Part shown: positions 4,661 through 41,965 of the stretch, piece after piece
How positions within the stretch are numbered: position 1 is the stretch's first letter
Layout of the letters: each line of letters begins with the position of its first letter
Origin: Patescibacteria group bacterium
GTDB lineage: Bacteria; Patescibacteriota; Patescibacteriia; UBA1558; GWA2-36-10
DNA: 64,000 nucleotides
Reading direction: 5' to 3'
Assembly (NCBI GenBank): GCA_018819405.1
Contig: JAHJQF010000001.1
Span: 371,277 to 435,276 of the forward strand
Position numbers and translations under genes: made by a program
Notes under the pieces: generated by a model
What the model was told of the DNA's origin: nothing
What the model saw: only the letters and a program-made list of their open reading frames with translations
Databases searched by the model: none

Positions 4661-4699
4661 AAAAATTCCCGCCGCGCTGAGCGCGGCGGGAATTTTTTA
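4661..4699. terminator. Bidirectional rho-independent terminator between convergent genes
   Basis: Perfect 12-bp GC-rich stem ttcccgccgcgc / gcgcggcgggaa with a 3-nt loop, A-run before and T-run after. Confidence 0.8.
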
Positions 4700-6178
4700 T
4701 AAATCTATAGTAACATCTGAGTCGGTATATAAGAGCATAAGGTGGTCTTTTATATATCTAAGATGCATATTGTGGTACTGAGGCTTTATATCAAGCCCAT
4801 TGGTAGTAAATAATTTGCTAAAAACATAATCAGTTAGCATTATATAAGACGGACCAGGTATATTATATTGATTTTTATCTTCTTCGGGATACAACCAATA
4901 TATTTGGTGGCCTGAATAATAACTTATTACATCTGGTACTGGGCCACTAAGAAAATACAAAGGTAATTCTGGCTTGTTGTCTTCTCTAATAATTAGACCT
5001 ATTTCTTTTAGGTTTTGGTCAAACTGATAATGTAGGGTTCTTAAGATTTTGTCGTTATGTCCGATGGATAAAGAAATAGAATAAATAACCAAAATAGTAA
5101 AAATGATAACATATAGTATTTTTATAAGTTTGTTTTTGCTAATTTTCCATAAACGATAAAAAGCTAAGCCAATTACCGTTGCTATATAGGGATAGGCGGG
5201 TATGAGATAAGTAGATATTTTTGTCTTTGATAGTGAATAAAATAAAATTATAAATAAGACAGAACACAAGCTGACCATAAAAAACTGTTTTGTCTTTTTA
5301 TCTTTATAAAATTTATTGATTATCAAGAAAATAATAATAGAAAGCAAAAATATTTGCCACCATGGTTGGCTAAAATTCCATAATTTATTTAAGTAGGCAA
5401 AATATTCTACTTTTTCTTTTATTCCAAAACCACCTTGAGCCCTTTCCCAAACATTCCAAATAATATATTTTTGCCAAAATTCAGAACCCCAGACCAGATG
5501 TTGGTTTATATGCCAGGGCAGTACAATTAATAAAGATAAGGGTAAACCAATCCATAGCCACTTACTTTTTAACCAGCTCCATTTTTTATAAAAAAAACTA
5601 AATATAAAAAATATAGGTATTACTGCCAATATAGAGACGCTTTTCATCAAAAAACCTAAGGCAAGAAGAGGTAAAATTGTCAGAAGATATTTTTCTTTTT
5701 TCCAGCCTACTATCAAAAAATATACTGAGGCTAGCATGATAGCATTTAGAGGAGTATCCAACCTTACTTGTCGTGAGCTAATGTAGAAAAACGGAATTAT
5801 AGCTAAAATAAAAGATGATAACAAAGCCAGATATTTTTGCTGGCTTAATTTTTTTATAATCAAGAAAATCAGCAATACAGAAAAAATGGCCGACAAAGCT
5901 GAAATTATACGGTAGGCTATTTCTGTATCACCAAATATTTTGACCATTGGCATACTCAGCCAAAAATACAACGGAGGCTTTTCAAACCAGTTGTTGCCCA
6001 TATGCTTCAGGGTCATTATTTGCCCGCTGTTTAGAGTATCTCTAGTGACCTGGGCATAGATACTTTCATCATAAGCAGTAATTGGTAGACTGCCCAGTTG
6101 CCAGAAATAAAAACAATAAGCAAATGAGATTATGAAGATTAGGGGAAGATAATGGATTATTTTTTCTTTGTTTAACAT
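4697..6178 (-). CDS. GT-C fold glycosyltransferase (ArnT / PMT family GT39/83-like), 12-TM membrane protein
   Basis: N-terminal DE-containing loop (AYDESIYAQV...EKPPLYFW) typical of ArnT/dolichyl-phosphate-mannose mannosyltransferase-like enzymes; polytopic. Confidence 0.6.
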   Translation of the reverse strand: MLNKEKIIHYLPLIFIISFAYCFYFWQLGSLPITAYDESIYAQVTRDTLNSGQIMTLKHMGNNWFEKPPLYFWLSMPMVKIFGDTEIAYRIISALSAIFSVLLIFLIIKKLSQQKYLALLSSFILAIIPFFYISSRQVRLDTPLNAIMLASVYFLIVGWKKEKYLLTILPLLALGFLMKSVSILAVIPIFFIFSFFYKKWSWLKSKWLWIGLPLSLLIVLPWHINQHLVWGSEFWQKYIIWNVWERAQGGFGIKEKVEYFAYLNKLWNFSQPWWQIFLLSIIIFLIINKFYKDKKTKQFFMVSLCSVLFIILFYSLSKTKISTYLIPAYPYIATVIGLAFYRLWKISKNKLIKILYVIIFTILVIYSISLSIGHNDKILRTLHYQFDQNLKEIGLIIREDNKPELPLYFLSGPVPDVISYYSGHQIYWLYPEEDKNQYNIPGPSYIMLTDYVFSKLFTTNGLDIKPQYHNMHLRYIKDHLMLLYTDSDVTIDL

Positions 6179-6288
6179 TCTCTAAGTTTAACTAATTTTT
6201 TTAAATTTGGCTATACAGTTTTTTGCTTTGTCTAAAATACCTATTTCTGGTATAATTTATATGATAAATTTTATTTTTATTATTTAAA

Positions 6289-8019
6289 ATGGCTTCACAT
6301 TTACCAATAACTCAGGAGGAACTAAAAAAAATACTTCTTGACGCCAAAGTAATCAAAGAAGATGACTGGGCAGAGGCTGACGATAATGCTCACCGTAGAA
6401 GAAGAGGAGTAGAAGAAGTGCTTATTGAGCGCGGTTTTGTCAATGCCAGATATTTGTATGAATTGGTGGGAGATTTTTTGAAAGTGCCTTATGTGAATTT
6501 GAGAAAAAGAAAACTTGACCCGGAAGTTTTGAAAATTATAGATGAAAAAACCGCTAGATCAGCCAAAGCAATTCCTTTTAATTTGGAAAAAGATGTTTTA
6601 AAGGTAGCCTTTGTTGATCCTAGAGAAAAAGCAGTGATTTCGGCGGTAAAATCAATGAGTAAGAAAAAAGTTGAGCCATATCTGACTAGCTACAAGAATT
6701 TTTTGTTTGCTTCTAGGCTGTATCAAAAAGATATTCAAGATGAATTAAACAAAATATTGGATGAAAAGATACTCAAAGTAGACGGTCGCCCAGCAGAAGT
6801 GGAAATCCCAATTATCAAGATTATAGATATAATTTTAGAAGCAGCTCTTTTTGAGCAAGCCTCAGATATACACGTAGAAGCCTTACCAGATGCCGTGGTA
6901 GTTCGTTTTAGGGTAGATGGTCATTTGCATGACATGGTAGAATTGCCAGCCTCAGTGCACGATGCCTTAGTGGCTCGTATCAAGATATTGTCTAATCTTC
7001 GTATTGATGAACATCGCGTGCCGCAAGATGGTCGTTTTTCTTTTAAAATAGAAGATGAAGAGGAGTCAGTCAGAGTATCGGTAATTCCGGCTTTTTATGG
7101 GGAAAAAATAGTCATGAGGCTTATGACTGATGAGGCTCAAAATTTGAGTATGGAAGATTTGGGATTTTTGGAACACAATGTAGAAGTGATGAAACGGCAG
7201 ATTAAAAAGCCTTTTGGCATGATATTGGTTGTTGGACCAACAGGATCTGGCAAAACAACTACTCTGTACTCAGTTTTAAATATTTTGAATACCGAAGAAG
7301 TAAATATTTGTACCATTGAGGATCCGATTGAATATGGAGTACATCGGGTCAATCAAACTCAGGTAAATCCCAAGGCCGGTTATGATTTTGCCAATGGTTT
7401 GAGGGCGCTACTTAGACAAGATCCTGATATTATCATGATTGGAGAAATCAGAGACAACGAAACAGCTCAGATTTCCGTCCGGGCGGGTTTGACAGGTCAT
7501 TTGGTATTATCAACCCTCCATACCAATAATGCAGCTGGTGCACCGCCTAGGCTTTTGGATATGGGAGTAGAACCATTTCTGGCCGCTTCCACCCTTAATG
7601 TAGTTATTGCTCAGAGATTGGTAAGAAGAATTTGTCTAAATTGTATAGAAAGTTTTCATCTTAAGAGTGATCAGCTAAAGAGTCTGAGTAGAGAGTTTAA
7701 TTTAGATGAAATGTTAAAGCGTTTCAAAGAATTTAAATTGGTAGAAGATAAAATAGAATCTTTTTCCAAATTGACTTTCTATAAAGGTAAGGGCTGCTCT
7801 AGGTGTAATGGCTCTGGTTATGATAAGCGTATTGCGGTGCTTGAGCTTTTGGAAAATAATTCAAAGATACAGGACGCAATTATTAAAAATTCTTCATCAG
7901 GTGATATAGAGAGGATAGCCAAAGAAAGTGGTATGGTCACCATTTTTGAAGATGGTATGCAAAAGGCGCTTTTGGGCATGACCACCATTGAAGAGGTGCT
8001 CAGAATTAAAAGAGAATAA
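6289..8019 (+). CDS. pilB: Type IV pilus assembly ATPase PilB (GspE family)
   Basis: T2SSE N-domain, Walker A GPTGSGKTTT, Asp/His boxes, C-terminal CxxC...CxxC zinc motif (CLNC...CSRC). Confidence 0.9.
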   Translation: MASHLPITQEELKKILLDAKVIKEDDWAEADDNAHRRRRGVEEVLIERGFVNARYLYELVGDFLKVPYVNLRKRKLDPEVLKIIDEKTARSAKAIPFNLEKDVLKVAFVDPREKAVISAVKSMSKKKVEPYLTSYKNFLFASRLYQKDIQDELNKILDEKILKVDGRPAEVEIPIIKIIDIILEAALFEQASDIHVEALPDAVVVRFRVDGHLHDMVELPASVHDALVARIKILSNLRIDEHRVPQDGRFSFKIEDEEESVRVSVIPAFYGEKIVMRLMTDEAQNLSMEDLGFLEHNVEVMKRQIKKPFGMILVVGPTGSGKTTTLYSVLNILNTEEVNICTIEDPIEYGVHRVNQTQVNPKAGYDFANGLRALLRQDPDIIMIGEIRDNETAQISVRAGLTGHLVLSTLHTNNAAGAPPRLLDMGVEPFLAASTLNVVIAQRLVRRICLNCIESFHLKSDQLKSLSREFNLDEMLKRFKEFKLVEDKIESFSKLTFYKGKGCSRCNGSGYDKRIAVLELLENNSKIQDAIIKNSSSGDIERIAKESGMVTIFEDGMQKALLGMTTIEEVLRIKRE

Positions 8020-8022
8020 AAT

Positions 8023-9264
8023 ATGGAATATATTAATAATCAAAATGATAAAATTTCTGAAACCAGAGTCTCTGTAGATAATCTAAGGAAAGACGGGGAG
8101 CTTACTAAAGTAAGTCCGCAGATGACTTCTTTTAAGTTGTATACCAAAAAACCTACTTCTAAAACTGCAAAGAAAGAGGATAAAGAAATAACCCCGATTC
8201 ATAAAAAGGGATTTATTTTAGGTAGAGTGAGTCTGACTGACAAGATGCTTTTTATGGATAATATGTCTACTATGTTGAGGGCTGGTTTGGCTCTAGCTCC
8301 AGCTCTTAGGACGCTAAAACAAGAAATAAAAAATAAATATTTTAGGGATATTTTGGATTATCTTGAGCGCCATGTAGAAAATGGTCAGCCACTTTCTAAA
8401 GGTATGAAATATTATCCCAAGATTTTTCCGGAAATGATAATCGCCACAGTAGAAGTAGGAGAGAGTACTGGTATGTTGGCGGATTCTTTTGGCAATTTGG
8501 CTGATATTCTAAAAAGACAAAAGGAGCTACAAGGCAAGGTAATTAGTGCTGTCATGTATCCGTCCATTGTCATGTTGGCGCTTATTGCAGTATCAATATT
8601 TTTGGCTTTAGTTATTTTTCCTCAGCTAGTTGGTCTTTTTCAATCGGCCAATGTAGAATTGCCTTTTGTCTTGAGGGCAGTACAGGCGATAAATGGTTTT
8701 ATTAGAAATTATACTTGGCATACTTTGGGTGGCTTGGTTATTTTTGGAGTGGCTATGAGATTTATATTTAAATTTCCAAAACCAAAATTTTTCCTTCACA
8801 GCATGATGCTCAAGATACCTTTTATTGGTAAGATAATCAGAGAGTTGTCGCTCACTAGATGGGCTGGAAATTTACAAGCTTTATTGGGAGCAGGATTGGC
8901 TATTGTAAATTCTATGAAAATATCAGCCCAGACACTTGGTAATATTAGATTTAAAAATGCAGTGTTAGAGATGTCTGATGAATTGGAAAAAGGCACTTCT
9001 CTAGAAAAAGCCATGCTTAAAAGGCCTGATTTATTTCCATCCTTATCGACTCAATTGTGTCAGGTAGGCGAGACCACTGGTGAGCTGGAGGAAATCCTAG
9101 GCAAAATTTCCAAATTTTATGAAGATAGAGTCAACAACATTTTGAGTAATTTATCTACTATTTTAGAGCCAATTTTGTTGGTGGTAGTAGGTGTAGTGGT
9201 CGGATTTATTGCGGTATCAGTCATTGGTCCGATGTATGAACTCACTCTTAGCTTTGCCGAATAA
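8023..9264 (+). CDS. pilC: Type IV pilus platform protein PilC (GspF family)
   Basis: Two GspF repeats and polytopic membrane profile, immediately downstream of pilB. Confidence 0.88.
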   Translation: MEYINNQNDKISETRVSVDNLRKDGELTKVSPQMTSFKLYTKKPTSKTAKKEDKEITPIHKKGFILGRVSLTDKMLFMDNMSTMLRAGLALAPALRTLKQEIKNKYFRDILDYLERHVENGQPLSKGMKYYPKIFPEMIIATVEVGESTGMLADSFGNLADILKRQKELQGKVISAVMYPSIVMLALIAVSIFLALVIFPQLVGLFQSANVELPFVLRAVQAINGFIRNYTWHTLGGLVIFGVAMRFIFKFPKPKFFLHSMMLKIPFIGKIIRELSLTRWAGNLQALLGAGLAIVNSMKISAQTLGNIRFKNAVLEMSDELEKGTSLEKAMLKRPDLFPSLSTQLCQVGETTGELEEILGKISKFYEDRVNNILSNLSTILEPILLVVVGVVVGFIAVSVIGPMYELTLSFAE

Positions 9265-9272
9265 TATAAATT

Positions 9273-9749
9273 ATGTTTAAAAAATATCAAGGAGGATTTT
9301 CAATAATAGAAGTTATCATGGTTTTGGGTTTGGTTGGTTTGGTAGTTGGTTTTGGAGCATCTGGTTATCAGGTTTGGCAAAAAAATATTCATCTCAATAA
9401 TGTCAGGGATGAAATAAAAAGTAGTCTATTTAGGGCACAACAGTTGGCTACAGCTGCCGCCAAGAGCAATCCTTGGGGAGTCCATTTGGAAGTTGATAGC
9501 TATACAATATTTAAAGGAAACTTTTATAACGAAGACGATCCGGATAATATGAGCTGGCAGTTGGAGGGCGTAGAAATTCTAGAACCATATAGAAGTTTTG
9601 ATGATGGGGCAGGGAGCACTACGGCGGATGTTTTATTTGGTAAGTTTGATGGTCAGACTATTAATACTGGCATAATATCTCTTTCTCCTATTGCTGATCC
9701 AGCTTTGATAAAAACTATTGAGGTGGAAGCACCAGGGCAAATAAATTGA
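9273..9749 (+). CDS. Type IV pilin-like protein (class III prepilin signal)
   Basis: N-terminus QGGFSIIEVIMVLGLVGLVV matches the prepilin peptidase motif G/FxxxE followed by a hydrophobic helix. Confidence 0.7.
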   Translation: MFKKYQGGFSIIEVIMVLGLVGLVVGFGASGYQVWQKNIHLNNVRDEIKSSLFRAQQLATAAAKSNPWGVHLEVDSYTIFKGNFYNEDDPDNMSWQLEGVEILEPYRSFDDGAGSTTADVLFGKFDGQTINTGIISLSPIADPALIKTIEVEAPGQIN

Positions 9750-11656
9750 TTATGTTTGATTATAAAAAAACAGAAGGTTTTTCTTTGATGGAATTATTGG
9801 TCGTCATATCTTTTGTCAGTGTGATGGTTTTTTTGATTTTGGGTGTCAGCAATTCAAATAATAAAGTAAAAAAATTAAATGAAGAAACAACCCAAGCTAT
9901 GTTTTATGCCTCTGAAGCTCTGGAAGCAGTCAAACTGATGGCGTGGGATGATATTAGTACTGGACAATATTCTGTAGAGTTGACTGGAGACAGTTGGACA
10001 CTATCTTCTGGTAGCCAGCTTTTGGACGGGTTTTATACTAGGCAGATTGAAGTCAGTGATGTATATAGAGCTAATATTTCTAATGGTCATAGTTATGGAG
10101 AAATAGTAAGTAGTGGAGGTTATCTTGACCCTGATACAAAAAAAGCTCAAGTGATAGTTGTTTGGGATAGTAAATCTGGCCATCAGGAAACGCAGACTCT
10201 AGAAACATATTTGCATCGTTTCAAAGCTGATCGTTGGCACCAGACAGACTGGGTAGGTGGAGATGGCCAGGAGCTGTGGAGTGATGAAACTAAGTTTTCT
10301 TTTAAAGATTCAGGTATTGATAATTCAATACCGGGTATTGTTACTTTAAAGGCCGGATTTATAGATTGGAGCTATGCCAATACTACCTCTACTTATGATA
10401 CACCGGGAAATTTTGATGATAATGATGTATATGAAATAAATGATATAGCCTATTTGGTGACAGAAAATAATAGTTATGGCAGTGAATTTTATATTTTAGA
10501 TGTCAGTGATATTTCTAGTCCCACTTTGATTTCATCTATGGATATTGGCGCAGCAGTAAAGTCAGTTTTTGTGCAAGATAATTATGCTTATATTGCTACT
10601 GATTCCAACTATCGTGAATTCCAAGTAATAGATGTGTCTAACCCAAGTAGCCCATTTATTGCAGATTATTATGATATGAGCGGAAATAGTAATGCTCTGG
10701 ATGTCATGGTAGATGAAAGCAAAGCCTATGTTGTCCAGGGAGATTATCTATACTCTTTTGACATTACTGATCCCACTGATATTCGATATCTTGATAGAAT
10801 AAGCGTAGATGATCAGGCTAGAGAATTATTTTTATCAGAAAGCTATGTTTATATAGCAACTGAAGATGACAATAAGGAGCTTCAAATAATGGATGTGACT
10901 AATCCAGCTAATTTGTCAGCTGTTGGTCAATATGACTTGCCAGGTTCTTTGAAAGGAACGGACGTAAATGTCAGGGGTAGCAGAGCTTTTATTTCCACTC
11001 AAAACAATGGTTCTGGGGCGGAGTTTTTTGTAATTGATGTGACTAATCCAGCTAACCCCAGTCTTTTGGGAAGTTACGCCGTTGATGAAACCATACATTC
11101 ATTTGCTATAGTCGGTCCATATGCTTTGGTGGGCACAAACTTTTTAGATCAAGAATTAGTGGTCTTAGATATCAGCTTTCCCGAAACTATAAATGAAATT
11201 TCCGGTTTTGATTTGAATGGCTATGTTTTGGGTATGAGTGCCAATTGTTCTGTCATATACGCGGCAACATCTGGAAATACTGGTGAATTTTTTATTATAT
11301 CTACCGATGTATTAGACTGTGAGTATGCAGATTATGGTACTATGGATTCTTCCACTTTTGATACTGGTAGCAACCAAGTAACCTACAATTGGATTGCCTG
11401 GACAGGCACTGAACCAAGTGGTACTGATATTCGTTTTCAGTTGGCTACTTCAGACAATGAAGCAGGCCCATGGAATTTTATCGGACCAGACGGTAGTAGC
11501 TCAAGTTATTATACAAATTCTATTCAAGAATACATAAATTATAGTGCCCATCAGGATGATAGATATATCAGATATAGATTATTTTTGGATAGTGATTCGG
11601 AGTGGCAAGTGCCTGTGGTAGAGGAGGTATTTATTAGTTATTCTACTTATCCATGA
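9746..11656 (+). CDS. Large pilin-like protein with LVIVD-repeat beta-propeller domain (putative pilus tip/adhesin subunit)
   Basis: Prepilin N-terminus EGFSLMELLVVISF. At least 5 tandem LVIVD-type repeats (YAYIATDSNYREFQVIDVSNPSSP, AYVVQGDYLYSFDITDPTDI, VYIATEDDNKELQIMDVTNPANL, AFISTQNNGSGAEFFVIDVTNPANPSL, ...). Confidence 0.65.
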   Translation: MIMFDYKKTEGFSLMELLVVISFVSVMVFLILGVSNSNNKVKKLNEETTQAMFYASEALEAVKLMAWDDISTGQYSVELTGDSWTLSSGSQLLDGFYTRQIEVSDVYRANISNGHSYGEIVSSGGYLDPDTKKAQVIVVWDSKSGHQETQTLETYLHRFKADRWHQTDWVGGDGQELWSDETKFSFKDSGIDNSIPGIVTLKAGFIDWSYANTTSTYDTPGNFDDNDVYEINDIAYLVTENNSYGSEFYILDVSDISSPTLISSMDIGAAVKSVFVQDNYAYIATDSNYREFQVIDVSNPSSPFIADYYDMSGNSNALDVMVDESKAYVVQGDYLYSFDITDPTDIRYLDRISVDDQARELFLSESYVYIATEDDNKELQIMDVTNPANLSAVGQYDLPGSLKGTDVNVRGSRAFISTQNNGSGAEFFVIDVTNPANPSLLGSYAVDETIHSFAIVGPYALVGTNFLDQELVVLDISFPETINEISGFDLNGYVLGMSANCSVIYAATSGNTGEFFIISTDVLDCEYADYGTMDSSTFDTGSNQVTYNWIAWTGTEPSGTDIRFQLATSDNEAGPWNFIGPDGSSSSYYTNSIQEYINYSAHQDDRYIRYRLFLDSDSEWQVPVVEEVFISYSTYP

Positions 11657-12201
11657 TTTTGAAAAATAACAAAATAAAAAAAGATCAAAAAGGTTTTACT
11701 TTTATAGAAACTTTACTTTATATTTTTATTTCCAGCATGCTTATTTTGATAATAAGCAGTATGGTAATGAGTATTTTCAATATCAAAAGGCAGTTTCAGG
11801 CATCATATTTAGTTCATAACAATGCCCGTTTTATTACCAATTTTTTGATGAATAGGATTCATAATGTAGACAGTATCCAAGATGCTAGTCCACTGCCTGA
11901 GGGATTTCATTTTTATGAATGGCCGGATATTCGTTTTAGTATAGATGCCGAGGGAAATGATTTGGTATACAGAGAGACGCATGATGTGGGAGCTGGTTTT
12001 CCTGATCAATCTACAGCCACGGCGATGGTTTTAAACTCAAATAAAGTAATAGTCAGCGATCTAACGCTGACGCCTATTTCCGATGCCTATGGGCAAGCAA
12101 ATCAGGGTATAAATATTACCTTTACTTTGACCACGGGCAATAGTAGTTATAGACATGGCTATTTGCAGAAAACTTTTAATACCTTTATAAGTATCCGTTG
12201 A
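11653..12201 (+). CDS. Minor pilin-like protein (prepilin N-terminus)
   Basis: N-terminus KGFTFIETLLYIFISSMLILII. Overlaps the previous gene by 4 nt (operon). Confidence 0.6.
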   Translation: MILKNNKIKKDQKGFTFIETLLYIFISSMLILIISSMVMSIFNIKRQFQASYLVHNNARFITNFLMNRIHNVDSIQDASPLPEGFHFYEWPDIRFSIDAEGNDLVYRETHDVGAGFPDQSTATAMVLNSNKVIVSDLTLTPISDAYGQANQGINITFTLTTGNSSYRHGYLQKTFNTFISIR

Positions 12202-13151
12202 TGAACAATAAAATAAAATCACAAAATGGGGCAGTGGCTTTGATAGCCACTCTGGTAGTAGCGACTGGTATGTTTTCGGTAGTTTTGTCAATTTTATTTA
12301 TTTCTATAAACACTAGGGAGAGCTTGATATCTTTTGTGGATTCTATGCAGGATTTTTATGCTGCCGAATCGGGAGTAGGAGAGGCAATGATGCAACTTAG
12401 AAAAGAGCATACTAATTTTGATTTTCGTAGTATAAATGTAGGGGGTATTGTAGCTTCTAGTGAGTTTTTTGATATGCCTGGAGAATGTATGCCGATTCCG
12501 GAGTGTCAATTTACACCAGGGTCAGGTTGGTGGGCTGAATATTTTAATTATTCTGTCACTCATCCTGATATGGAGGTCAATCCTTATCCCGGGCCAACTC
12601 CTAGTCCACTTGATCATGATTGGTATTGGGATATTTATAAAACACACGAGCAGGTTGATGCCAATATTGATTTTCTGACCAGTATGTGGTTTCCCTATGA
12701 TGGGACTATTTACGAAAACAAAGAGGGGTTTTTGCATGATTACCATTTTGGTATGCACTGGCGAGCAAAGGTGACAGCACCAGCTGATAGTGATTATAGA
12801 TACTATTTAGCATCAGACGACGATTCTTGGGTTTTATTGGATGATATAGTAATAGTAAATAATAGTGGCACTCACGCTGCTAATATAAAAACAGGCACTA
12901 TATTTTTATCAGCCGGCGATAGTATAGTAGACATATATTTTGCTGAACGCCACACCGTAGAATCAGGCTTTAGTTTTTATTTTGAGGATACCAATTTGGT
13001 TATTACTCCTTGGCCAGAAGGTTGTGGTGATGATTTGACTTGTAATTCTCATATAGAGTCGACTGCTTCTACTACCAAAGCCACCAGAAAAGTAAGATAT
13101 ACTTGTAACCAGGATATTTCCAACTGTAATTGGAGTGAACTAGTGCCATAG
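12198..13151 (+). CDS. PilX_N-like pilus protein carrying a PA14-like carbohydrate-binding domain
   Basis: N-terminus QNGAVALIATLVVATGMFSVVLSILF resembles the PilX N-domain. The C-terminal half matches the PA14 pattern (GWWAEYF...MHWRAKVTAPADSDYRYYLASDDDSWVLLDDIVIVNNSGTH...IFLSAGDSIVDIYFAE). Confidence 0.55.
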   Translation: MMNNKIKSQNGAVALIATLVVATGMFSVVLSILFISINTRESLISFVDSMQDFYAAESGVGEAMMQLRKEHTNFDFRSINVGGIVASSEFFDMPGECMPIPECQFTPGSGWWAEYFNYSVTHPDMEVNPYPGPTPSPLDHDWYWDIYKTHEQVDANIDFLTSMWFPYDGTIYENKEGFLHDYHFGMHWRAKVTAPADSDYRYYLASDDDSWVLLDDIVIVNNSGTHAANIKTGTIFLSAGDSIVDIYFAERHTVESGFSFYFEDTNLVITPWPEGCGDDLTCNSHIESTASTTKATRKVRYTCNQDISNCNWSELVP

Positions 13152-13155
13152 GTGT

Positions 13156-13164
13156 GCTATAATA
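13156..13164 (+). promoter_or_regulatory. Extended -10 promoter element (TGcTATAAT) upstream of the ClpB-D1-like gene
   Basis: tgctataat lies 28 nt upstream of the ATG at 13192. Confidence 0.35.
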
Positions 13165-13191
13165 AACCCAGTTAAAAATATAATATAAAAA

Positions 13192-14130
13192 ATGGAAGTA
13201 TTTGATAAATATTTATTTTATAATATAATCCTGCTGATTTTAGTGGGTGTTTATTTATTAAAGAGTAATCAGGACAAAAAATATGGTCAGTCAAATTTTT
13301 TTGGTAAGACCAAAATTTTTCAGCCAGTCATAGAAAAATTTACAACCAATCTCACTCAGCTTGCTATAGAAAGCAAAATTGATCCGGTAGTGGGCAGGGA
13401 CCATGAGATAAAAAGACTGATTCAAATATTATCACGACGAAAAAAAAATAATGTTATTTTGTATGGCAAAGCCGGTATTGGTAAAACAGCCATTGTAGAA
13501 GGTTTGGCTATGGCCATTTCTCAAGCTAGGGTTCCGCAGTCTCTTTTGGGTAAGACAGTTCTTAAATTGGATATATCATCAGTTTTGGCGGGCACAAAAT
13601 ATAGAGGTGAGTTTGAAGACCGTTTCAAGGCTTTGATTGATGCCATTATAAGTTTGGAAAAACAGGTAATAGTTTTTATTGATGAGATTCATACTATAGT
13701 TCAAGCCGGTGGCGTGGAAGGAGCTATTGACGCTGACGATATTATAAAATCTCCTTTGGCACGTGGCGATCTGCAGATGGTAGGAACTACTACCACCAAA
13801 GAGTTTAAAGAATTTATTTTAAAAGACGCCGCTTTGACTAGACGTTTTGAAGCAATTTTAGTAGAAGAGCCTAGTGCTGAAAAAACTATTTCTATGCTCA
13901 AGGCACTGCGTAAAGATTATGAGGATTATCACAATGTTATTATCAGCGATAAAATAATAGAAAATATAGTTTCTTATTCGGCTAAAATAAAAAACAGAGT
14001 TTTTCCTGACAAGGCTATTGATATAATGGATGAAGTATCGGCCAAGGCAAGACTTGATCATGTTGACAATAACAAAACCATCACAATCACAAATAAAGAC
14101 CTTAGCGATGTTTTAAAAGATTTTAAATAA
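13192..14130 (+). CDS. Membrane-anchored AAA+ protein: N-terminal TM helix fused to a single ClpA/ClpB/ClpC-type first nucleotide-binding domain (D1), lacking the M-domain and D2
   Basis: Collinear with ClpB D1 (LAIESKIDPVVGRDHEIKRLIQILSRRKKNNVILYGKAGIGKTAIVEGLA...VIVFIDEIHTIV...ARGDLQMVGTTT...DAALTRRFE...DKAIDIMDE) and then terminates. Hydrophobic N-terminus. Confidence 0.7.
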   Translation: MEVFDKYLFYNIILLILVGVYLLKSNQDKKYGQSNFFGKTKIFQPVIEKFTTNLTQLAIESKIDPVVGRDHEIKRLIQILSRRKKNNVILYGKAGIGKTAIVEGLAMAISQARVPQSLLGKTVLKLDISSVLAGTKYRGEFEDRFKALIDAIISLEKQVIVFIDEIHTIVQAGGVEGAIDADDIIKSPLARGDLQMVGTTTTKEFKEFILKDAALTRRFEAILVEEPSAEKTISMLKALRKDYEDYHNVIISDKIIENIVSYSAKIKNRVFPDKAIDIMDEVSAKARLDHVDNNKTITITNKDLSDVLKDFK

Positions 14131-14139
14131 AGTTATATT

Positions 14140-14328
14140 ATGAGTGAAGTAAAAATAATTCAGGCCATTTCTATAAAAACCAAAACACTGTTGGCAGTCA
14201 TGATGCTTTTGTCGGTTTTTAGTATGGCTTTTTTGGTCGCTCTTATAGCCAGGGGTATGAGTGCTCTTGGGCAACAAATAGCCAGTCACGATATTGGTAT
14301 GGAAACACAAAATTATCTTAAAAAATAA
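14140..14328 (+). CDS. Small single-TM protein, hypothetical
   Basis: 62-aa ORF with one hydrophobic helix, 10 nt downstream of the AAA+ gene. Confidence 0.3.
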   Translation: MSEVKIIQAISIKTKTLLAVMMLLSVFSMAFLVALIARGMSALGQQIASHDIGMETQNYLKK

Positions 14329-14463
14329 TAAAAAATAAGACTCTGGCAGGGTTCTTTTTTTATTTACCCTGTTAAATTTTTTTTTAATGGGGTTTGACAA
14401 AAATATTTAAAAAGCAAATAATTAATAGTAATTAGGAGGAATAATAATTTAAAGTATAAATGT

Positions 14464-15252
14464 ATGTTTTTCTCTAAATTTAGATTTTTTGTAGGGTTTT
14501 TGGCTATTTTTAGTGGTATTTTGCTAATGGGAGCCAGCTGTCAAAATAATCAGGATCTTTATAATCAAAACAATAGTAATATAGTAGAAGAACAACTTGA
14601 TAACCAACCTTTAATTGGCGGTGATAAGGATGAGTATGGCTGTCTTATATCGGCAGGCTATTCTTGGTGCGAGACAAAAAATAAATGTTTGCGCACTTGG
14701 GAAGAAGAGTGCTCGGTAGTTGAAAATTCTAATCAAAATCAGACAATTCCAGTAGTTAAAACACCTGATAGTATTGTAGACTCTGTAGATTGGCAAATAT
14801 ATGAAAATAAAAAATTTGGTTATACAGTTTTGTATCCAGATAACACAGAAATTATTGCCAATAATTTAGACGAGTTTGTAGAGTTTGTGGGACCTTTGCA
14901 AGATGGAGAACGCTGGCCAAGGATTAGTATCTCACATTTTGACACCGTTGATTATCATCCGGAGGTGGGGGTCAATTTACAGGAATGGTTGGAAGATAGT
15001 ATTGGATCTTATGAGACTAGGGTTATTGGTATTGATGGAGGTATAGAAACACTACATGTTATTCAGCCACAGACAGTTGATTCTGATGGGGCAGATTATT
15101 ATTATTTTGTAAAAGACGGGCAGTTATTTAAGATTACTTTTTTGCACACTATCGGAAGTCAAGATTGGCCTATGTATATAAAATTTTTGTATAATTTCCA
15201 TTTTAATGTACCTACTACTAATGATATAGCTACCACTACTCCAGCACAATAA
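14464..15252 (+). CDS. Secreted protein / possible lipoprotein, hypothetical, cysteine-containing
   Basis: Signal peptide ending LLMGASC; no recognised domain. Confidence 0.5.
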   Translation: MFFSKFRFFVGFLAIFSGILLMGASCQNNQDLYNQNNSNIVEEQLDNQPLIGGDKDEYGCLISAGYSWCETKNKCLRTWEEECSVVENSNQNQTIPVVKTPDSIVDSVDWQIYENKKFGYTVLYPDNTEIIANNLDEFVEFVGPLQDGERWPRISISHFDTVDYHPEVGVNLQEWLEDSIGSYETRVIGIDGGIETLHVIQPQTVDSDGADYYYFVKDGQLFKITFLHTIGSQDWPMYIKFLYNFHFNVPTTNDIATTTPAQ

Positions 15253-15273
15253 TATTTTATAAATAAAAAATAG

Positions 15274-15311
15274 ACCTGCGGCGCGCTTTGGCGCGCCGCA
15301 GGTTTTGTTTT
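15274..15311. terminator. Bidirectional rho-independent terminator
   Basis: acctgcggcgcgc / gcgcgccgcaggt perfect 13-bp stem with tttg loop, flanked by A-run and T-run; separates convergent genes. Confidence 0.8.
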
Positions 15312-16374
15312 ACAGGCTATCGAGAATCTCGGTCAGCTTTTCAGCGATGACCGTAGCTACTGAGACATTTTCCACCAGACCGCCAGTCTGGTTTTCGTAA
15401 GAACGATGGATAGTGTCTCCAGCCAGGACTCGGGTGAAAGGACTGGTCCTTTTGCGACCAACCCTTCTTTTCCAGGGGGGCGAACACTTCATGTGGGTGG
15501 CGACCAGCTCTACCTGGAAAGCCTCGGCTCGCAACAGGTCGCGGCAGGTGTCAGCGGCAGTACCACCGGTATCGAGCTCATCTTCCCGCATGATGATGTA
15601 GGCGTCCTTGACGGTTTCCGAGTTGATGAGTTGGATTTCAACTCCATATTCCTGGCTTATCTTTTCGATGAAAGTCAGGTCTTGCGGTGTGGGTTCAACA
15701 TTGGTGACAATGTTGCCGGTTTCTTTGCGCTTTTTCAAGCTCAGGAGCACCGGTACGTCCAGTGACTTAGCAATGGCTACTGCCCTCAAGAGTGAACCTT
15801 TGTCCGGGGACAGAATCTTGAATTCTTTGTCGAGTTCCTTGGCCTTGGTCAGGCTGGACTTGAGAGCCGCTATGTACAACGGTGTAGGTTTGACGTGGTA
15901 GGTCTCCAGGCCGACTTGCTGGCAGTTGAGCATTGTTCTTTCGGAATGGATGTCGCAGACAAGCATACGGTCTGCTCCGTTGGCCTTGATGTTCTCCATG
16001 AACCAGAGGTTGAGGTCAAATTCTTCGGGGATCTCCGGATGATCCTGTCGTCGAAAAGCCATAAAGGGCTGAACAACGGTCAGACTCTTGGCGCCGTACT
16101 TTTTCTTGATCGCTCGGATGAGGATCAAAAGCTCCAAGACTAGGTGTGGTTTGTGGGTGCTCAGAAAGAGTACTGCGTGCTTGCCGGCGATGTCTTCCCA
16201 GCGGTCAAAACAGAAGTCAGGCTCACTGTCCGGCCACCAACCGAAATCGGTGTGGGACAGGCTGAGTGGTACTTATTTGATCCGGCGTATATTGACAGCG
16301 TCAATGATTTTTTGGGCCAGGTGGTTGGTGTCTCCGCGTCCGCAGAGCATCAGGATTTCTTCGGAGTGTGCCAT
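15310..16374 (-). pseudogene. prs: Ribose-phosphate pyrophosphokinase (PRPP synthetase, Prs family)-like gene interrupted by one in-frame TAA (minus-strand codon at 16275..16273), in a ~55% GC island
   Basis: Prs-collinear translation: MAHSEEILMLCGRGDTNHLAQKIIDAV...(TAA)...FLSTHKPHLVLELLILIRAIKKKYGAKSLTVVQPFMAFRRQD...DELDTGGTAADTC. Strong SD gggagg 5 nt before the ATG. GC content far above flanks. Confidence 0.55.
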
Positions 16375-18661: not shown

Positions 18662-19465
18662 CTAAAGTCTTTTGAGGTAATTTTTTGCTGCTACTTTTGT
18701 TTCAAAATGCAGAGCTTTTTTTATATGGGTACTTTCAGCACCTTCAGATTTTAATCGGTGAGCCAAAGTGTTTCTTAGTATTTGGGGGTTGATAATTACT
18801 GGCGGATCAATACCTATGGCATATTTAGAAATCAGCCTTTCAATTGAGCGGACACTTAAATGCTCATTTTTACTTTTATTTGATCTATCAAAATTTATAA
18901 ATAAATATTGATTGTTATCTAGCCTTTGGTTTATGTATTTATCAAGATGAAACCAGGTTATAGGTTTTATAAGAATATGTTTTTTGGGATTGATAATAAT
19001 TTCTTTTTTTATTTGATCTATTTGATCAAGGCGCAACTGGCATAATTGTCCGACTTTTAATCCGCTGTAATATAAAATCTCTAATATTGCTTTATCACGC
19101 AGGGCTATCAATCCTTTTTTTGTCAGAGGTTTATCTAAAAATACCTGAAGTTGTTCATTATTTAATATTTTGATTGGCGCATCTTGATCAGAGAGAAGAT
19201 CAAATTGAAATCTTTTATTTAAAAATTTAAGATAGTTATTTACAATTTTTAGGCGTAGATTGACAGTATTTACTCTTTGATATTTTCTAGTTAAATATAT
19301 AAAATATAATTTAAGGTTTTTTTCGGTGATTTTTTCTTCCCCAAGCCAAACTAGGAATTTTTCCAAATTCCAAAGATAGCTTTTTATAGTACTAGGGGCT
19401 AAGGCGAGAGATTTTAAGTATTTTTTGTATTCATTTACCCCGTTAGAAATTTTAGTAGTCGACAT
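18662..19465 (-). CDS. Tyrosine site-specific recombinase (XerC/XerD / phage integrase family)
   Basis: N-terminal SAM-like core-binding region and C-terminal catalytic segment with R...HRL...Y (LRNTLAHRL...KNYLKRL). Confidence 0.75.
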   Translation of the reverse strand: MSTTKISNGVNEYKKYLKSLALAPSTIKSYLWNLEKFLVWLGEEKITEKNLKLYFIYLTRKYQRVNTVNLRLKIVNNYLKFLNKRFQFDLLSDQDAPIKILNNEQLQVFLDKPLTKKGLIALRDKAILEILYYSGLKVGQLCQLRLDQIDQIKKEIIINPKKHILIKPITWFHLDKYINQRLDNNQYLFINFDRSNKSKNEHLSVRSIERLISKYAIGIDPPVIINPQILRNTLAHRLKSEGAESTHIKKALHFETKVAAKNYLKRL

Positions 19466-27161: not shown

Positions 27162-28853
27162 ATGAAAGATTTATTGAAATCCCCTTGGGTATTAATCATT
27201 GTTATATTTTTTGGAGCTTTGCTCCGTTTTTGGAATATTTTGGCTAATGATATTACCAATGATTTGTCTATCAATGCTTTTAGGGCCTATGGCTGGCTAG
27301 ATTTTTTAGTAGGTGATGGTCAGACTTCGCCGATTGTTTGGTTTGGTTTTAGGCCTTGGTGGAGCCTATTGTCTTTTCATGATTTACCGCCTTTGATAAT
27401 GGCTATCCAATATTTATCTATAAAACTAATTGGGCCAAGCTCATTGGGTGTTTTATTCCCTTTTTTATTATCGTCTATATTAGTAACATTTTTTCTTTAT
27501 TATTTCCTAAAGAAAACAGCTAACCAGAGTATAGCTATCATAGCCAGCTTGATATTTTCTATTTCTTCATATAGTGTTTGGGCAGCTCGTACAGGATATT
27601 TGGAAGGGGCAGAAGTTTTATTTATTATTTTAGCTTTTTTCTTATTCATTTTATTCATAAAAACTAAGAAAAATAAACATTTTTATCTATTTTCTATATT
27701 TATAGCTTTGGCTATATTATCAAAATACACCTCTATATTTCTTATTCCTTCAGCTTTGGCTTATCTGGTCATATTTGAAAGAAAAATTTTTAAAAATAAA
27801 CATTTTTATTTGGCTATATTATCAGGTCTGATATTACTAACCCCAATAATTATTTATAATATTTTTGTTTTTAAAACAAAGGGGCATTTTGACGCGGCTT
27901 TATCATCAATGGTCGGTATGCATCCTCAGGATTATGATGTGATAGCTGAGCGGGGGGTCAATGCTAGTATTTTGAAAAATTTAGGTTCGATCATGGTGGT
28001 TATATTTCGAAGCAGTTCCCTGCCTTTGGTCTTGGTCTACGCTTTGTCTTTCATATTTTTACTAATTAAAGTTACCAGAAGGCAAACAAGGTATTGGCAG
28101 AATTTTTTGGCTATAAATATAGTGATGATAATTCTCATGTTTTCTTTTTCCGGAGCACCGCCTAGATTACTTTCTATAATTAATCCTTTTTTGGCAATCT
28201 TAGCCGCTTGGTTTTTATATAGATTATTTATTTTGGTAAGAAATAAGAAATTTTTAAACTATTTTCTAATATTTATTTTTATTATATTTGCTTTAGCAGA
28301 GATTTTTTATAATATAAATACCAATGTGTTGAGAAAACCAGTTGGACCTTTGTGGCTGACTTATTCTGGGTACCGTTTTTATAATCGAGGTTTTATAGAG
28401 CTAGAAAAATATATTAAAGAAAATATTTATATAAGTAATAAAAAAGTCAAGCTAGATACCTATAAAGACTTGCGGTCTGTTAGTCTGGAGGGAAATAAAA
28501 TAATGCTTTTTGATGAAAGGCTGGATTGGTTTGCTAGAGTCTGGTATATCAATCGTTACATGTTATATTATAAGGCGCCTTTATTTTATTTTCAGGACAT
28601 TGAGCCGGCTATGAAGCAGGCGGGAGTATCTGATGTATTTGCTTATTTCAATAAATTTTTGGATATCAATGAGTTTTATTTTGTTTATGTCATAGATGAC
28701 GAATCTCGTAGTAATAAAAGTCAAAATTATATTGATCAAATGAATCTGATAAAAGATAATTTGGAAAAAAGTGGTATTAATCCTGATAGAGAAATTAAAG
28801 ATTATAAAGGTGAGGTTATTTATAAAATTTACCATTTTTATATAAACAACTAA
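27162..28853 (+). CDS. GT-C fold glycosyltransferase-like polytopic membrane protein (PMT_2/ArnT-like), tentative
   Basis: More than 10 TM helices with an N-terminal periplasmic-loop architecture like ArnT/PMT enzymes. Weaker match than 4697..6178. Confidence 0.45.
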   Translation: MKDLLKSPWVLIIVIFFGALLRFWNILANDITNDLSINAFRAYGWLDFLVGDGQTSPIVWFGFRPWWSLLSFHDLPPLIMAIQYLSIKLIGPSSLGVLFPFLLSSILVTFFLYYFLKKTANQSIAIIASLIFSISSYSVWAARTGYLEGAEVLFIILAFFLFILFIKTKKNKHFYLFSIFIALAILSKYTSIFLIPSALAYLVIFERKIFKNKHFYLAILSGLILLTPIIIYNIFVFKTKGHFDAALSSMVGMHPQDYDVIAERGVNASILKNLGSIMVVIFRSSSLPLVLVYALSFIFLLIKVTRRQTRYWQNFLAINIVMIILMFSFSGAPPRLLSIINPFLAILAAWFLYRLFILVRNKKFLNYFLIFIFIIFALAEIFYNINTNVLRKPVGPLWLTYSGYRFYNRGFIELEKYIKENIYISNKKVKLDTYKDLRSVSLEGNKIMLFDERLDWFARVWYINRYMLYYKAPLFYFQDIEPAMKQAGVSDVFAYFNKFLDINEFYFVYVIDDESRSNKSQNYIDQMNLIKDNLEKSGINPDREIKDYKGEVIYKIYHFYINN

Positions 28854-39763: not shown

Positions 39764-39840
39764 TCGTCCTGTAGCTCAGCTGGTTAGAGCACCACTCTTA
39801 TAAAGTGGGGGTCCTGGGTTCAAGTCCCAGCAGGACGACC
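39764..39840 (+). tRNA. tRNA-Ile with anticodon UAU (reads AUA)
   Basis: Manual fold: acceptor cgtcctg/caggacg with one G-U, D-arm gctc/gagc, anticodon stem ccact/agtgg with loop cttataa (anticodon TAT), T-arm ctggg-ttcaagt-cccag, discriminator A, encoded CCA. Confidence 0.8.
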
Positions 39841-39898
39841 AGATTGACATTTTATCCACTATTTGCTATATTTCTATCGTTAAATTTATTATCAAGAT

Positions 39899-39988: not shown

Positions 39989-40167
39989 TTTTTACCTGTC
40001 TACGGTAGGTAGGTATTTATTCAATAAAGAACCGTTTTTGCCTAGCGCGATTATTGTGGCATTAGCGGTTTTTTGTTAGGTTTAAAAGATAAAAAATCGC
40101 GCCCCCTTTTTCCAACATAGGATTAAGGGGGCGTTAGTATAGGCTGACCGCCTATTGTGTTGTAGAC

Positions 40168-40461
40168 TCAGGCCACCTTGGCCAGAGTAGGGTAGGAGGA
40201 GATCCTAGCCAAACCAGGGTCTTCAAACTGGACAGCAAAGTAGGAATCGGACATCCCGACCAGCCGGCCTTGTCTGATACCAGAAAGCCAGTAGATCCAG
40301 CGTATATCACCACGCTTGACGACCACGAAAGTGCGGCGTCCTTTGTGGATGATGGCCTTGCGTCCGGTTAGGGAATTGGTCAAGGTCAGGTCTCGGTGTA
40401 GGATAGCCGTTACGCGAGGCAGTTCCGGTAGGAGTTCTTGGAGTTTTTCCAGAGTAGACAT
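40168..40461 (-). CDS. Small basic protein, candidate RelE/ParE-like toxin partner
   Basis: 97 aa from internal ATG 40461 (MSTLEKLQ...). Segment RRTFVVVKRGDIRWIYWLSGIRQ resembles RelE/ParE-fold toxins (weak). Confidence 0.35.
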   Translation of the reverse strand: MSTLEKLQELLPELPRVTAILHRDLTLTNSLTGRKAIIHKGRRTFVVVKRGDIRWIYWLSGIRQGRLVGMSDSYFAVQFEDPGLARISSYPTLAKVA

Positions 40462-40465
40462 GAGT

Positions 40466-40708
40466 TTAGCTCCCTTCAGGCAGGCGAAGCAGCCGATTGA
40501 AGATGCTGGGGTCTTCGACAAAGCTTCGAATTTCACCAATCTGGTCAAGGTCGTAGTTGAAGTAAAGGGTGTAGGAGCCAGCTGGCAAAATGATGATTTC
40601 TTGGACTTGTCCGGTTATAGGGTCGATGACTTCAACACTGGTGTTTGTGTCCAGGACAATGGTCTTGGGATCAGCGAGGATTGACTGAAATTTTTCGGCT
40701 TGAGTCAT
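40466..40708 (-). CDS. Small acidic protein, candidate antitoxin of a two-gene toxin-antitoxin-like module (GC-rich island)
   Basis: 80 aa, pI acidic. Stop separated by 4 nt from the downstream basic ORF; SD aagggag for the downstream gene lies in its 3' end. Confidence 0.35.
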   Translation of the reverse strand: MTQAEKFQSILADPKTIVLDTNTSVEVIDPITGQVQEIIILPAGSYTLYFNYDLDQIGEIRSFVEDPSIFNRLLRLPEGS

Positions 40709-40978
40709 GACATTTTCCTCCTAGTGAAAAGAACAGATTTGAGCATAAAAAAATATTCCTTTTCAGGAATATTTAATTCACTCTATATAAATATTTTTTT
40801 CTTTGACAAATTCAGAACTGAGAAAAAATAAAAGCCCTTTATCGGGGGTCATTTTCTGATGATGGGCATATCTTTTTTTCATCTTTATAATTATAGCAAA
40901 AATAAATATTTGGTCAACTAGTCTTAAAATAAAGGGAAAATTGAAGCCCCCACCAAGATGTCTGTCTATAGTGGGGGC

Positions 40979-41176
40979 TCAAGCTTGGCCGGGGCTTAGT
41001 GATCCGTTTTGGATCAATTGGAGGTGCTGTCTCAGTGCTTGTTCAACTTCTTGGGCCGTTTCTTTCCGGCAGTAGAGGCGAGCTACATCAATCGCCGCAT
41101 GTAGGGTTTTTTCATCGGGTAGGGAGTAAAAGTTTTGGATAGCCATGGCCATGAGTTTGGCGCCGTCTTCTTGCAT
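40979..41176 (-). CDS. 65-aa hypothetical protein with canonical SD and sigma70-like promoter
   Basis: SD ggaggtga 4 nt upstream of ATG. Promoter TTGACA (41266..41261) -17 nt- TATAAA (41243..41238) on minus strand. Confidence 0.4.
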   Translation of the reverse strand: MQEDGAKLMAMAIQNFYSLPDEKTLHAAIDVARLYCRKETAQEVEQALRQHLQLIQNGSLSPGQA

Positions 41177-41306
41177 GGTTTCACCTCCTTGAGGTTTCGA
41201 GTTAAGGACAGGGCGGAGAAAAATAGAGTAATATTTATTTATAATATTAATATTGGTATTTGTCAAGAAAAGGAAGGCCGCCCGACTAGAAGCCGGGCGG
41301 CTATGT

Positions 41307-41657
41307 TTAGGAAGCATTGACAGCCTCTTCGGCATCATTGTCTTCCGATACGTCCTCGGTAGGTGTGAGTTGTGGCAGCAACTCCAGGACCTTGAGAGGC
41401 ACGATGGAAACCCTGAGACCAGGGTAGTCTTTTTGGGTGGAGGCCCAAATCCAGCTGGTTATAGATTGGCCGACCATGCGACCTTGGTCAAGCTCTTTCT
41501 TGATGACCAAGAGGTCATGAGGAAAGATAGTAGGATCTCCTGGATTGGCTATCCTGACCAACTTGTAAGTACCAGCGGCGTAGACTATTGGTTTCCCCTG
41601 GATAAGAGGGCTTGGGAACAGGGTATCCTCCTCTGTGGAAAAGTCTATGAGGTTCAT
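41307..41657 (-). CDS. 116-aa hypothetical protein (strand choice uncertain in GC-rich DNA)
   Basis: Co-oriented with all other island genes and protein-like composition. The overlapping plus-strand ORF 41253..41687 is the alternative. Confidence 0.3.
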   Translation of the reverse strand: MNLIDFSTEEDTLFPSPLIQGKPIVYAAGTYKLVRIANPGDPTIFPHDLLVIKKELDQGRMVGQSITSWIWASTQKDYPGLRVSIVPLKVLELLPQLTPTEDVSEDNDAEEAVNAS

Positions 41658-41965
41658 CGGGTGATGAGCAACGAGGGTGAAGATTAAGTGCTTTGCGACG
41701 TTGCCTCCGTGCTAGAGAAGTGAGTGAGGTGCGAGTGGCGGGGGGATATATTTTTATTATACACAAAAAATAGGATAAGGGAAATTTTTATAATTTTTAT
41801 AAAAAGAAAGCCGCCCTGGAACGTTTGGCGTTCCAGGGCGGAGGGAAAAACAAGGTCAGCTAGCTTGTACGTATCTAGGACTTGTTTTCGAATTGGCTGG
41901 GGTTGAAATCAACAACCACTATCAGTCGTTGGGGGAGATGGCAGATTTAGTATAATAGTTCCTTT

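Follow-up and report, generated by a model that had tools for sequence, protein, structure and literature searches.

Gene Content and Layout of the Locus

The DNA analyzed here, referred to as the window, is a 64-kb stretch of a low-GC (~36%) metagenome-assembled genome (MAG) of Patescibacteria, located on a contig of 1,035,872 bp. Positions 6289-13151 are filled by six open reading frames (ORFs) of the same strand, which are spaced by 3 to 8 nt or have small overlaps, and which make up a type IV pilus (T4P)-related cassette of an assembly ATPase, a platform protein and four pilins. The neighboring genes in the window are housekeeping genes (copper ATPase, PNPase, IF-2, RNase Y, ClpP, LeuRS, and others). 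An initial annotation of the region, made from the sequence alone, gave ORF coordinates that match the sequence exactly. It also placed pilB and pilC at the head of the cassette, an assignment that was found to be of very high confidence (T2SSE, T2SSF).

The assembly ATPase belongs to the PilB/GspE family (6289-8019, + strand, 576 aa). It matches T2SSE with an E-value of 1.1e-129 and carries an MshEN domain at its N-terminus (1.2e-11). Against NCBIfam it scores 518 bits for GspE (TIGR02533) and 514 bits for PilB (TIGR02538), both under the equivalog cutoffs. The platform protein of the PilC/GspF type (8023-9264, + strand, 413 aa) matches T2SSF in two stretches (8.9e-53) and GspF TIGR02120 (1.7e-78). 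With these two proteins and three pilins that carry class III signal peptides, the locus belongs to the type IV filament systems, i.e., T4P, type II secretion systems (T2SS) and Com systems.

The four pilin genes follow pilC, and had been described as overlapping consecutively by 4 nt. This holds for the junction at 11653 (ATGA), whereas the overlaps at the other two junctions depend on TTG start codons. The corresponding NCBI starts are ATG at 9752 and ATG at 12201, which give proteins of 634 aa and 316 aa. Except for the start codon the second pilin, of 636 aa, is MBU1202792.1 (KKH39_01985), and the fourth, of 317 aa, is MBU1202794.1 (316 aa); both are annotated as "hypothetical protein." The 317-aa protein was missing from its own homologue search, which was caused by cluster representation and the different start codon; the gene is annotated. 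We refer to the four pilins by the letters H, I, J, and K, the order in which the four minor pilins of type IV filaments are named (PMC9934059) and which is the same as the gene order here.

Signal Peptides and the Two Small Pilins

The initial annotation assigned class III prepilin N-termini to all four pilins. Three of them are canonical, with the leaders QGG↓FSIIE, TEG↓FSLME, and QKG↓FTFIE for the H, I, and J pilins (the arrow marks the cleavage site). The glutamate at position 5 (Glu5) is kept in 51/51, 51/51, and 13/13 of their homologues, respectively, and the glycine at position -1 in at least 92%. The fourth leader, SQNG↓AVALI, is degenerate: G-1 is present in 49/49 homologues but Glu5 in 0/49, and the +5 residue is I, V, L, or M in all of them.

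The H pilin (9273-9749, + strand, 158 aa, leader MFKKYQGG↓FSIIE) gave a weak N_methyl match. Further weak matches to PpdA (PRK10506, 4.5e-7), GspH (TIGR01708, 1.6e-4, under its cutoff), and ComGD (1.2e-3) run past the N-terminal helix. Its family comprises 1303 representative clusters, and 19 of the 51 full-length homologues match Pfam GspH (PF12019; best 1.3e-5). Since the family matches GspH and the weak matches of the protein itself extend past the helix, the 158-aa protein was classified as a putative GspH/FimU-type minor pilin and not as a major pilin.

The J pilin (11653-12201, + strand, 182 aa, MBU1202793.1, leader ...KDQKG↓FTFIE) overlaps the upstream gene by ATGA and matches N_methyl with an E-value of 2.7e-5. 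Its matches to ComGD, ComGF (7.3e-5), and PRK10557 are weak and cover the N-terminus alone. A family profile searched against the PDB matched the N-terminal helix and gave nothing for the globular part. The 182-aa protein is a canonical prepilin, named J-position from gene order only.

The I Pilin Carries a Seven-Bladed Propeller

The I pilin (9746-11656, + strand, 636 aa from a TTG start, leader ...KKTEG↓FSLME) matches LVIVD (PF08309) in four scoring stretches with an E-value of 2e-26 and 91.5 bits, compared to a cutoff of 20.2, and Beta_propel (PF09826) with 1.3e-8. Its matches to ComGE (1.1e-4) and GspI (0.014) are both weak and confined to the N-terminus, and the family profile searched against the PDB gave matches to the N-terminal helix alone. 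Identity to the protein across its full length reaches 47% or more in about 100 clusters.

A structure was predicted with AlphaFold2 (AF2) on an alignment of 51 sequences and reached a mean predicted local distance difference test (pLDDT) score of 87.1. In the model a pilin module (aa 1-166; 9746-10243, + strand) combines the long alpha1 helix (14-64) with a beta-sheet (73-166), and is followed by a linker of lower confidence. Next comes a beta-propeller (aa ~205-520; 10358-11305, + strand), in which 28 strands form seven four-stranded blades (212-519). The propeller is of the LVIVD type, the score being above the Pfam gathering threshold and the ~42-aa repeat units forming a propeller. The initial annotation counted "at least 5" LVIVD-type repeats. 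The propeller stands, and the number is corrected to seven from both the sequence and the AF2 blades.

The protein ends in a conserved beta-sandwich domain (aa ~527-636, AF2 530-634; 11324-11653, + strand), delimited by hidden Markov model (HMM) domain matches and alignment. This domain is without a Pfam family. A GH92 mannosidase (7nsn, E 0.005) has repeated beta-sandwich domains to which it is weakly similar, and members of its family gave weak matches to F5_F8_type_C (0.024, in 1 of 16) and to LtfC (in 3 of 16). These are weak hints of a CBM32/discoidin-like sandwich. The C-terminal propeller typical of PilY1/PilC adhesins (IPR008707/Neisseria_PilC-type), which are non-pilin proteins, was not found at this locus.

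In the I pilin family, most of the invariant residues are Gly, Tyr, Trp, and Pro with structural roles. This bears on the question of whether the propeller could be an enzyme instead of an adhesin, i.e., a pilin-displayed hydrolase that modifies or breaches the envelope of a partner cell. We consider this very improbable: generic fold resemblance is all that speaks for it, no catalytic family was found by Pfam or NCBIfam, the invariant residues are of the structural kind, and non-enzymatic WD40 proteins are at least as similar as 5hrm.

The K Pilin Carries a PA14 Domain Inserted Into the Pilin Sheet

The last gene of the cassette (12198-13151, + strand) encodes a protein of 317 aa from a TTG start. 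As proposed in the initial annotation, it contains a PA14 domain: the Pfam score for PF07691 is above the cutoff (1.2e-6, 28.9 bits vs. 24), and AF2 predicts a PA14 beta-sandwich fold. Fibro_Slime (TIGR02148) was matched with an E-value of 9.5e-7, under its cutoff. The N-terminus had been termed PilX_N-like. This part of the proposal was not supported, since PilX_N (PF14341) was not detected in a Pfam scan at E ≤ 1, which gave PA14 and DUF2748 alone.

In the AF2 model of the protein (pLDDT 81.9) a long N-terminal helix (5-69) is followed by two short strands, after which come a large beta-sandwich and the last three strands. The lectin-fold PA14 domain (aa ~96-275; 12483-13022, + strand) is placed within the pilin's beta-sheet. 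The protein is without Glu5 and carries a bulky domain in its pilin sheet, which are the features of a K subunit, and a K-type cap pilin is therefore a better description of it than a PilX_N-like protein. GspK is built on the same principle, with an alpha-domain inserted into the pilin sheet (PMC8179133).

A scan limited to one genome per species detected full-length I pilin orthologues in another 28 species. In 4 of the 28 species the cap pilin is 135-153 aa long and lacks PA14, the HMM positions 2-95 being joined straight to 275-317 (L016:10446-10856, L017:10445-10852, L018:10370-10831, and L020:7336-7752; the prefix L denotes loci of other genomes). Since the orthologues of four species lack it cleanly, PA14 constitutes a separate unit inserted in the pilin sheet, and the PA14-less variants mark its exact borders.

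Within PA14 the motifs S206-x-D208-D209-x-W211, N221-x-S223-G224-x-H226, and R251-H252 are invariant. D208-D209 align with the DD of the solved RsgI3 PA14, and D207 is found in 46 of 49 sequences. In PA14 lectins of the Flo5, Epa, and RTX-adhesin type the sugar site depends on Ca2+ and is formed around a DcisD motif. The cap pilin also has three invariant Cys pairs (97/103, 276/282, and 303/310). The conserved PA14 residues are compatible with a candidate binding site that is possibly calcium-dependent.

LVIVD and PA14 matches and prepilin cleavage contexts are all present, the absence of which had been named in the initial annotation as grounds for abandoning its proposal. The scores behind these observations are far beyond chance.

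Conservation and Module Variants in Other Genomes

The order pilB-pilC-H-I(LVIVD)-J-K was found on one strand in all 28 loci as far as the contigs reach; the contig of L011 stops after J. The species are labeled Komeilibacteria, Parcubacteria, Nomurabacteria, or Patescibacteria, in addition to some mislabeled MAGs. Among the loci whose flanks were read, L001-L004 have flanking genes that differ from those of the window, and only L007, the closest relative, shares the flanks of the window. As the flanking genes differ, the six genes look like a conserved unit.

In more distant Candidate Phyla Radiation (CPR) loci the core of pilB-pilC-H and a big pilin is retained, and one or two extra pilins of 188-202 aa are located just 5' of pilB in L036, L037, L041, L042, and L044. 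Three of the distant big pilins, from Harrisonbacteria and other MAGs, are ~485 aa long and lack the propeller (L036:7658-9127, L037:7950-9392, and L042:6846-8324), while two parts are retained, namely the pilin module with linker (HMM 4-228) and, at the C-terminus, the conserved domain (HMM 528-631). In L006 the big pilin has extra propeller repeats (948 aa; 10001-12847) and is followed by a Laminin_G_3 protein of 1006 aa with two copies of the C-terminal domain of the big pilin (12753-15869). Further 3' in L006 are genes for PilM, a 345-aa PilT-like ATPase and two more pilins. Big pilins of ~600 aa from Magasanikbacteria and Paceibacterota have the C-terminal domain alone in common with the pilin of the window, and HMM matches to this domain (hmm 524-631) were found across L036-L066. 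This comparison of CPR loci shows that the propeller in the middle of the protein is the variable module, and that the pilin module before it and the C-terminal domain behind it are constant.

Several cassette-bearing MAG records look mislabeled. L019, L024-L028, L031, L032, and L054 are titled "uncultured Gammaproteobacteria bacterium," and L037, L040, and L042 are titled "uncultured Candidatus Saccharibacteria bacterium."

A Proposed Tip Complex and Its Function

We propose, with a probability of roughly 0.6, that the locus is a self-contained and vertically conserved T4P cassette of a CPR lineage, in which a motor is combined with four minor pilins. These would act as a priming and tip complex of the HIJK kind, with binding modules on the I and K subunits. 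The proposal builds on which genes are present, on their signal peptides and folds, on the modularity seen in the PA14-less and propeller-less variants, and on the conservation of the cassette. An H-I-J-K gene order is that of the gsp, fimU-pilVWX, and comG operons. The weak ComGE and GspI matches on the second pilin and the weak ComGF matches on the third are consistent in position with an HIJK set. Four minor pilins of this kind nucleate assembly on the platform and are carried out as the tip of the filament, and a missing Glu5 is what marks out the subunits by which tip complexes are capped, namely the K subunit and Streptococcus sanguinis PilA (PMC9934059).

By this proposal a prepilin peptidase (PilD) encoded elsewhere would cut the leaders, after which the four pilins would nucleate on PilC within the membrane. 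The Glu5-less subunit would enter first, followed by the I and J pilins and the GspH-like adaptor. It would be located at the very top, because it is inserted first and nothing could dock above it. A major pilin, also encoded elsewhere, would then polymerize below and push the complex out as the tip of a pilus. The tip would expose at least two, and perhaps three, binding modules, since the I pilin has both a propeller and a beta-sandwich and the cap has PA14. Their targets would most likely be surface glycans and proteins of a host or of a partner cell, and the modules would functionally replace the non-pilin PilY1 adhesin of diderm bacteria. CPR cells have an envelope without an outer membrane.

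The initial annotation had suggested dedicated tip or minor-subunit adhesins for attachment to a host or partner. This is plausible and in part supported. The precedents, namely the modular tip pilins of S. sanguinis and PilX2 of the Saccharibacterium TM7x, make adhesion the most likely role, which for the present locus would hold by analogy.

Several observations weigh against the proposed tip complex. The PA14 score is only modestly over its threshold. In the predicted structure the pilin moiety of the cap pilin resembles GspK and GspI-like folds to a similar degree. The I and J assignments, which are made from position and weak N-terminal matches, are putative; family profiles found the alpha1 helix alone in the PDB, and membership of the GspI, GspJ, or GspK families was not detected by NCBIfam and PDB profile searches. 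The organism is uncultivated. Finally, a regex and HMM scan of the 64-kb window revealed no further pilin, including a major pilin; PilT retraction ATPase and PilM/N/O are absent from the window, and none of the ORFs scanned across it matched a prepilin-peptidase family. The window therefore does not add up to a complete pilus machine. The major pilin may be encoded elsewhere, as in TM7x (PMC11623550).

The apparent lack of a nearby major pilin could also mean that none is needed. PilB, PilC, and the four pilins would then suffice as a machine whose main subunit is the 158-aa pilin, and a short pseudopilus or bindosome-like stalk would hold the lectin and the propeller at the surface for capture of nutrients or glycans, or for secretion, instead of a long adhesive pilus. 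The bindosome of Sulfolobus, in which sugar-binding proteins are anchored via class III signal peptides, provides a parallel. The cassette is autonomous and compact, PilB scores equally for GspE and PilB, and neither the window nor the 28 orthologous loci have a major pilin, PilT, or PilM near the cassette. We nevertheless regard this explanation as unlikely. The family of the 158-aa pilin matches GspH, which is a minor pilin, and not the families of major pilins. Moreover, the extra 188-202-aa pilins 5' of pilB in distant CPR loci, and the two pilins that accompany PilM and a PilT-like ATPase in L006, suggest that a separate major pilin exists. Real T4P filaments have also been reported for CPR cells (PMC11623550).

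A second alternative, which we rate slightly lower still, is that the cassette encodes a Com-like pilus for DNA uptake, i.e., a CPR counterpart of comGA-GG in which the bulky modules help to capture the extracellular DNA or nucleotides needed by auxotrophic cells. The initial annotation had contrasted the cassette with a plain DNA-uptake pilus, and yet its gene order does resemble that of comG. However, all matches to Com proteins are far under the equivalog cutoffs and on the pilins cover the N-terminal helix alone, the PA14 fold is associated with carbohydrates and adhesins, and the YncE match is no better than those to ~40 generic WD40 propellers. In TM7x a pilus with a propeller pilin was found not to contribute to competence (PMC11623550).

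The proposal of an HIJK-like adhesive tip can be extended to Patescibacteria in general, although we regard the extension as possible rather than probable. Patescibacteria would share a tip-complex chassis consisting of pilB-pilC-H, an I pilin whose C-terminal domain is constant, J and a cap that lacks Glu5. Binding modules such as PA14, Laminin_G, and LVIVD propellers, the last either single or duplicated, could enter this chassis, disappear from it, or be exchanged among lineages. Such swaps might set the host or partner specificity of episymbiosis, and the job of PilY1 would be split and fused onto the I and K pilins.

Neighboring Features of the Window

Two membrane glycosyltransferases of the PMT_2/ArnT-like type are encoded in the window (4697-6178, - strand, and 27162-28853, + strand). 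The first is divergent from pilB and also adjoins the cassette in L007. A link of these enzymes to glycosylation of pilins or of the cell surface is conceivable. The divergent intergenic region before pilB (6179-6288) contains a promoter-like candidate identified by a consensus scan alone (6228-6256, + strand), TTGTCT-17-TATAAT with a TG extension, located 33 nt 5' of pilB. Directly 3' of the cassette (13192-14130, + strand) is the gene for a stand-alone AAA+ module of the ClpA/ClpB type (312 aa; AAA and AAA_lid_9) with a hydrophobic N-terminal segment. It matches ClpB TIGR03346 with an E-value of 1.7e-95 at profile positions 155-400 only, and was found in L007 and not in other species. The flanking PMT_2 glycosyltransferase and this ClpB-like AAA fragment were considered as parts of the system and rejected, since they are common to the closest relative L007 alone.

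A tyrosine recombinase gene (18662-19465, - strand; Phage_integrase 1.5e-13) is located between phosphoribosyltransferase genes and rpsO, and could be XerC/D-like or the remnant of a mobile element. At 49948-51528 (+ strand) a probable surface protein of 526 aa with TSP3_bac calcium-binding repeats (2.9e-14) is encoded. Two GC-rich blocks (40050-41950; GC 0.45-0.55 compared to ~0.36 for the window) lie ~200 nt 3' of tRNA-Ile(tat) (39765-39841). They contain short minus-strand ORFs only, e.g., 40168-40548 (126 aa) and 40466-40708 (80 aa), and a hairpin at 40100-40133. The folding z-scores of the GC-rich segment are -4.5 for the + strand and -3.2 for the - strand, and no Rfam family was found in the segment at 40-42 kb at E ≤ 0.1. 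It looks like short protein-coding ORFs, and may be a small foreign island inserted beside a tRNA gene.

Comparison With Known Systems

The cassette resembles the HIJK sets (GspH-I-J-K, FimU-PilV-PilW-PilX, and ComGD-GG) in having four pilin genes straight after the genes for an ATPase and a platform protein in one operon, with tight coupling of the genes. The first pilin appears GspH-like, and the last is without Glu5 and has a bulky insert in its pilin sheet, as GspK does. It differs from these sets in that the I subunit is 636 aa long, with a propeller and a beta-sandwich, compared to ~100 aa, and in that the insert of the K subunit is a PA14 lectin fold and not the alpha-domain of GspK. 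There is also no adjacent major pilin.

In S. sanguinis the modular pilins PilB and PilC are located at the tip and bind proteins and glycans of the host (Raynaud et al., 2021; Shahin et al., 2023; PMC8179133, PMC9934059). They carry a vWA and a lectin module, respectively, and act with PilA. As in this set, pilins of the window are fused to adhesion-type modules and accompanied by a Glu5-less partner, with a predicted location at the tip and an envelope of the monoderm type. In contrast to S. sanguinis, PA14 is here inside the Glu5-less subunit, there are four pilins with an H-like member, and the system is known from its genes.

A census from 2021 listed 8, 8, 7, and 4 proteins that combine N_methyl with 1, 2, 5, and 4 LVIVD repeats, respectively, and in addition a Falkowbacteria protein with 12 repeats. 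It also listed 9 proteins of the N_methyl-PA14 type, with CPR examples among the architectures (PMC8179133). The cap pilin would escape this census because it has no recognizable N_methyl signature. Modular tip pilins as a concept, and the two domain combinations as well, are thus already published, and nothing is overturned by the present results. In the searchable literature we did not find a PA14 domain in pilins of CPR or in minor pilins. Three aspects appear to be undescribed there, namely the conserved six-gene cassette, PA14 inside a Glu5-less cap pilin with natural insert-less variants, and the chassis of the big pilin with its constant pilin module and C-terminal domain. This single locus displays both designs of modular tip subunits, i.e., C-terminal fusion and insertion into the pilin sheet.

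How the ultrasmall cells of Patescibacteria find and hold their hosts is known mainly from a few cultivated Saccharibacteria. In one of these, TM7x, deletion of PilX2, a non-canonical minor pilin that bears a propeller, halves host binding while filaments remain (Grossman et al., 2024; PMC11623550). Both systems belong to Patescibacteria. In the T4P-2 of TM7x a seven-bladed propeller is carried by one minor pilin (PilX2) and a lectin-like beta-sandwich by another, a bulky minor pilin has a non-canonical signal peptide, and glycan-based recognition of the host is proposed, all of which resemble the cassette of the window. PilX1 and PilX2 of TM7x are likened to the present set by description and not by sequence. 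The propeller of TM7x is of the RCC1 type and located on the non-canonical pilin, whereas here it is of the LVIVD type and located on a canonical GFxxxE pilin, and the PA14 protein is the one without Glu5. For uncultivated lineages of the Parcubacteria/Komeilibacteria type, the PA14 insert, the seven-bladed propeller, and the C-terminal sandwich provide conserved candidates for host recognition, and the insert-less variants give domain borders that can be used for expression and binding studies.

PilY1/PilC of diderm T4aP also displays a propeller at the tip of the pilus together with minor pilins. The combination of PA14 and propeller is common in PilY1, with 76 proteins listed in which PA14 is N-terminal (PMC8179133). 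As these two domains are frequent in PilY1, the cassette can be seen as the parts of PilY1 fused to pilins.

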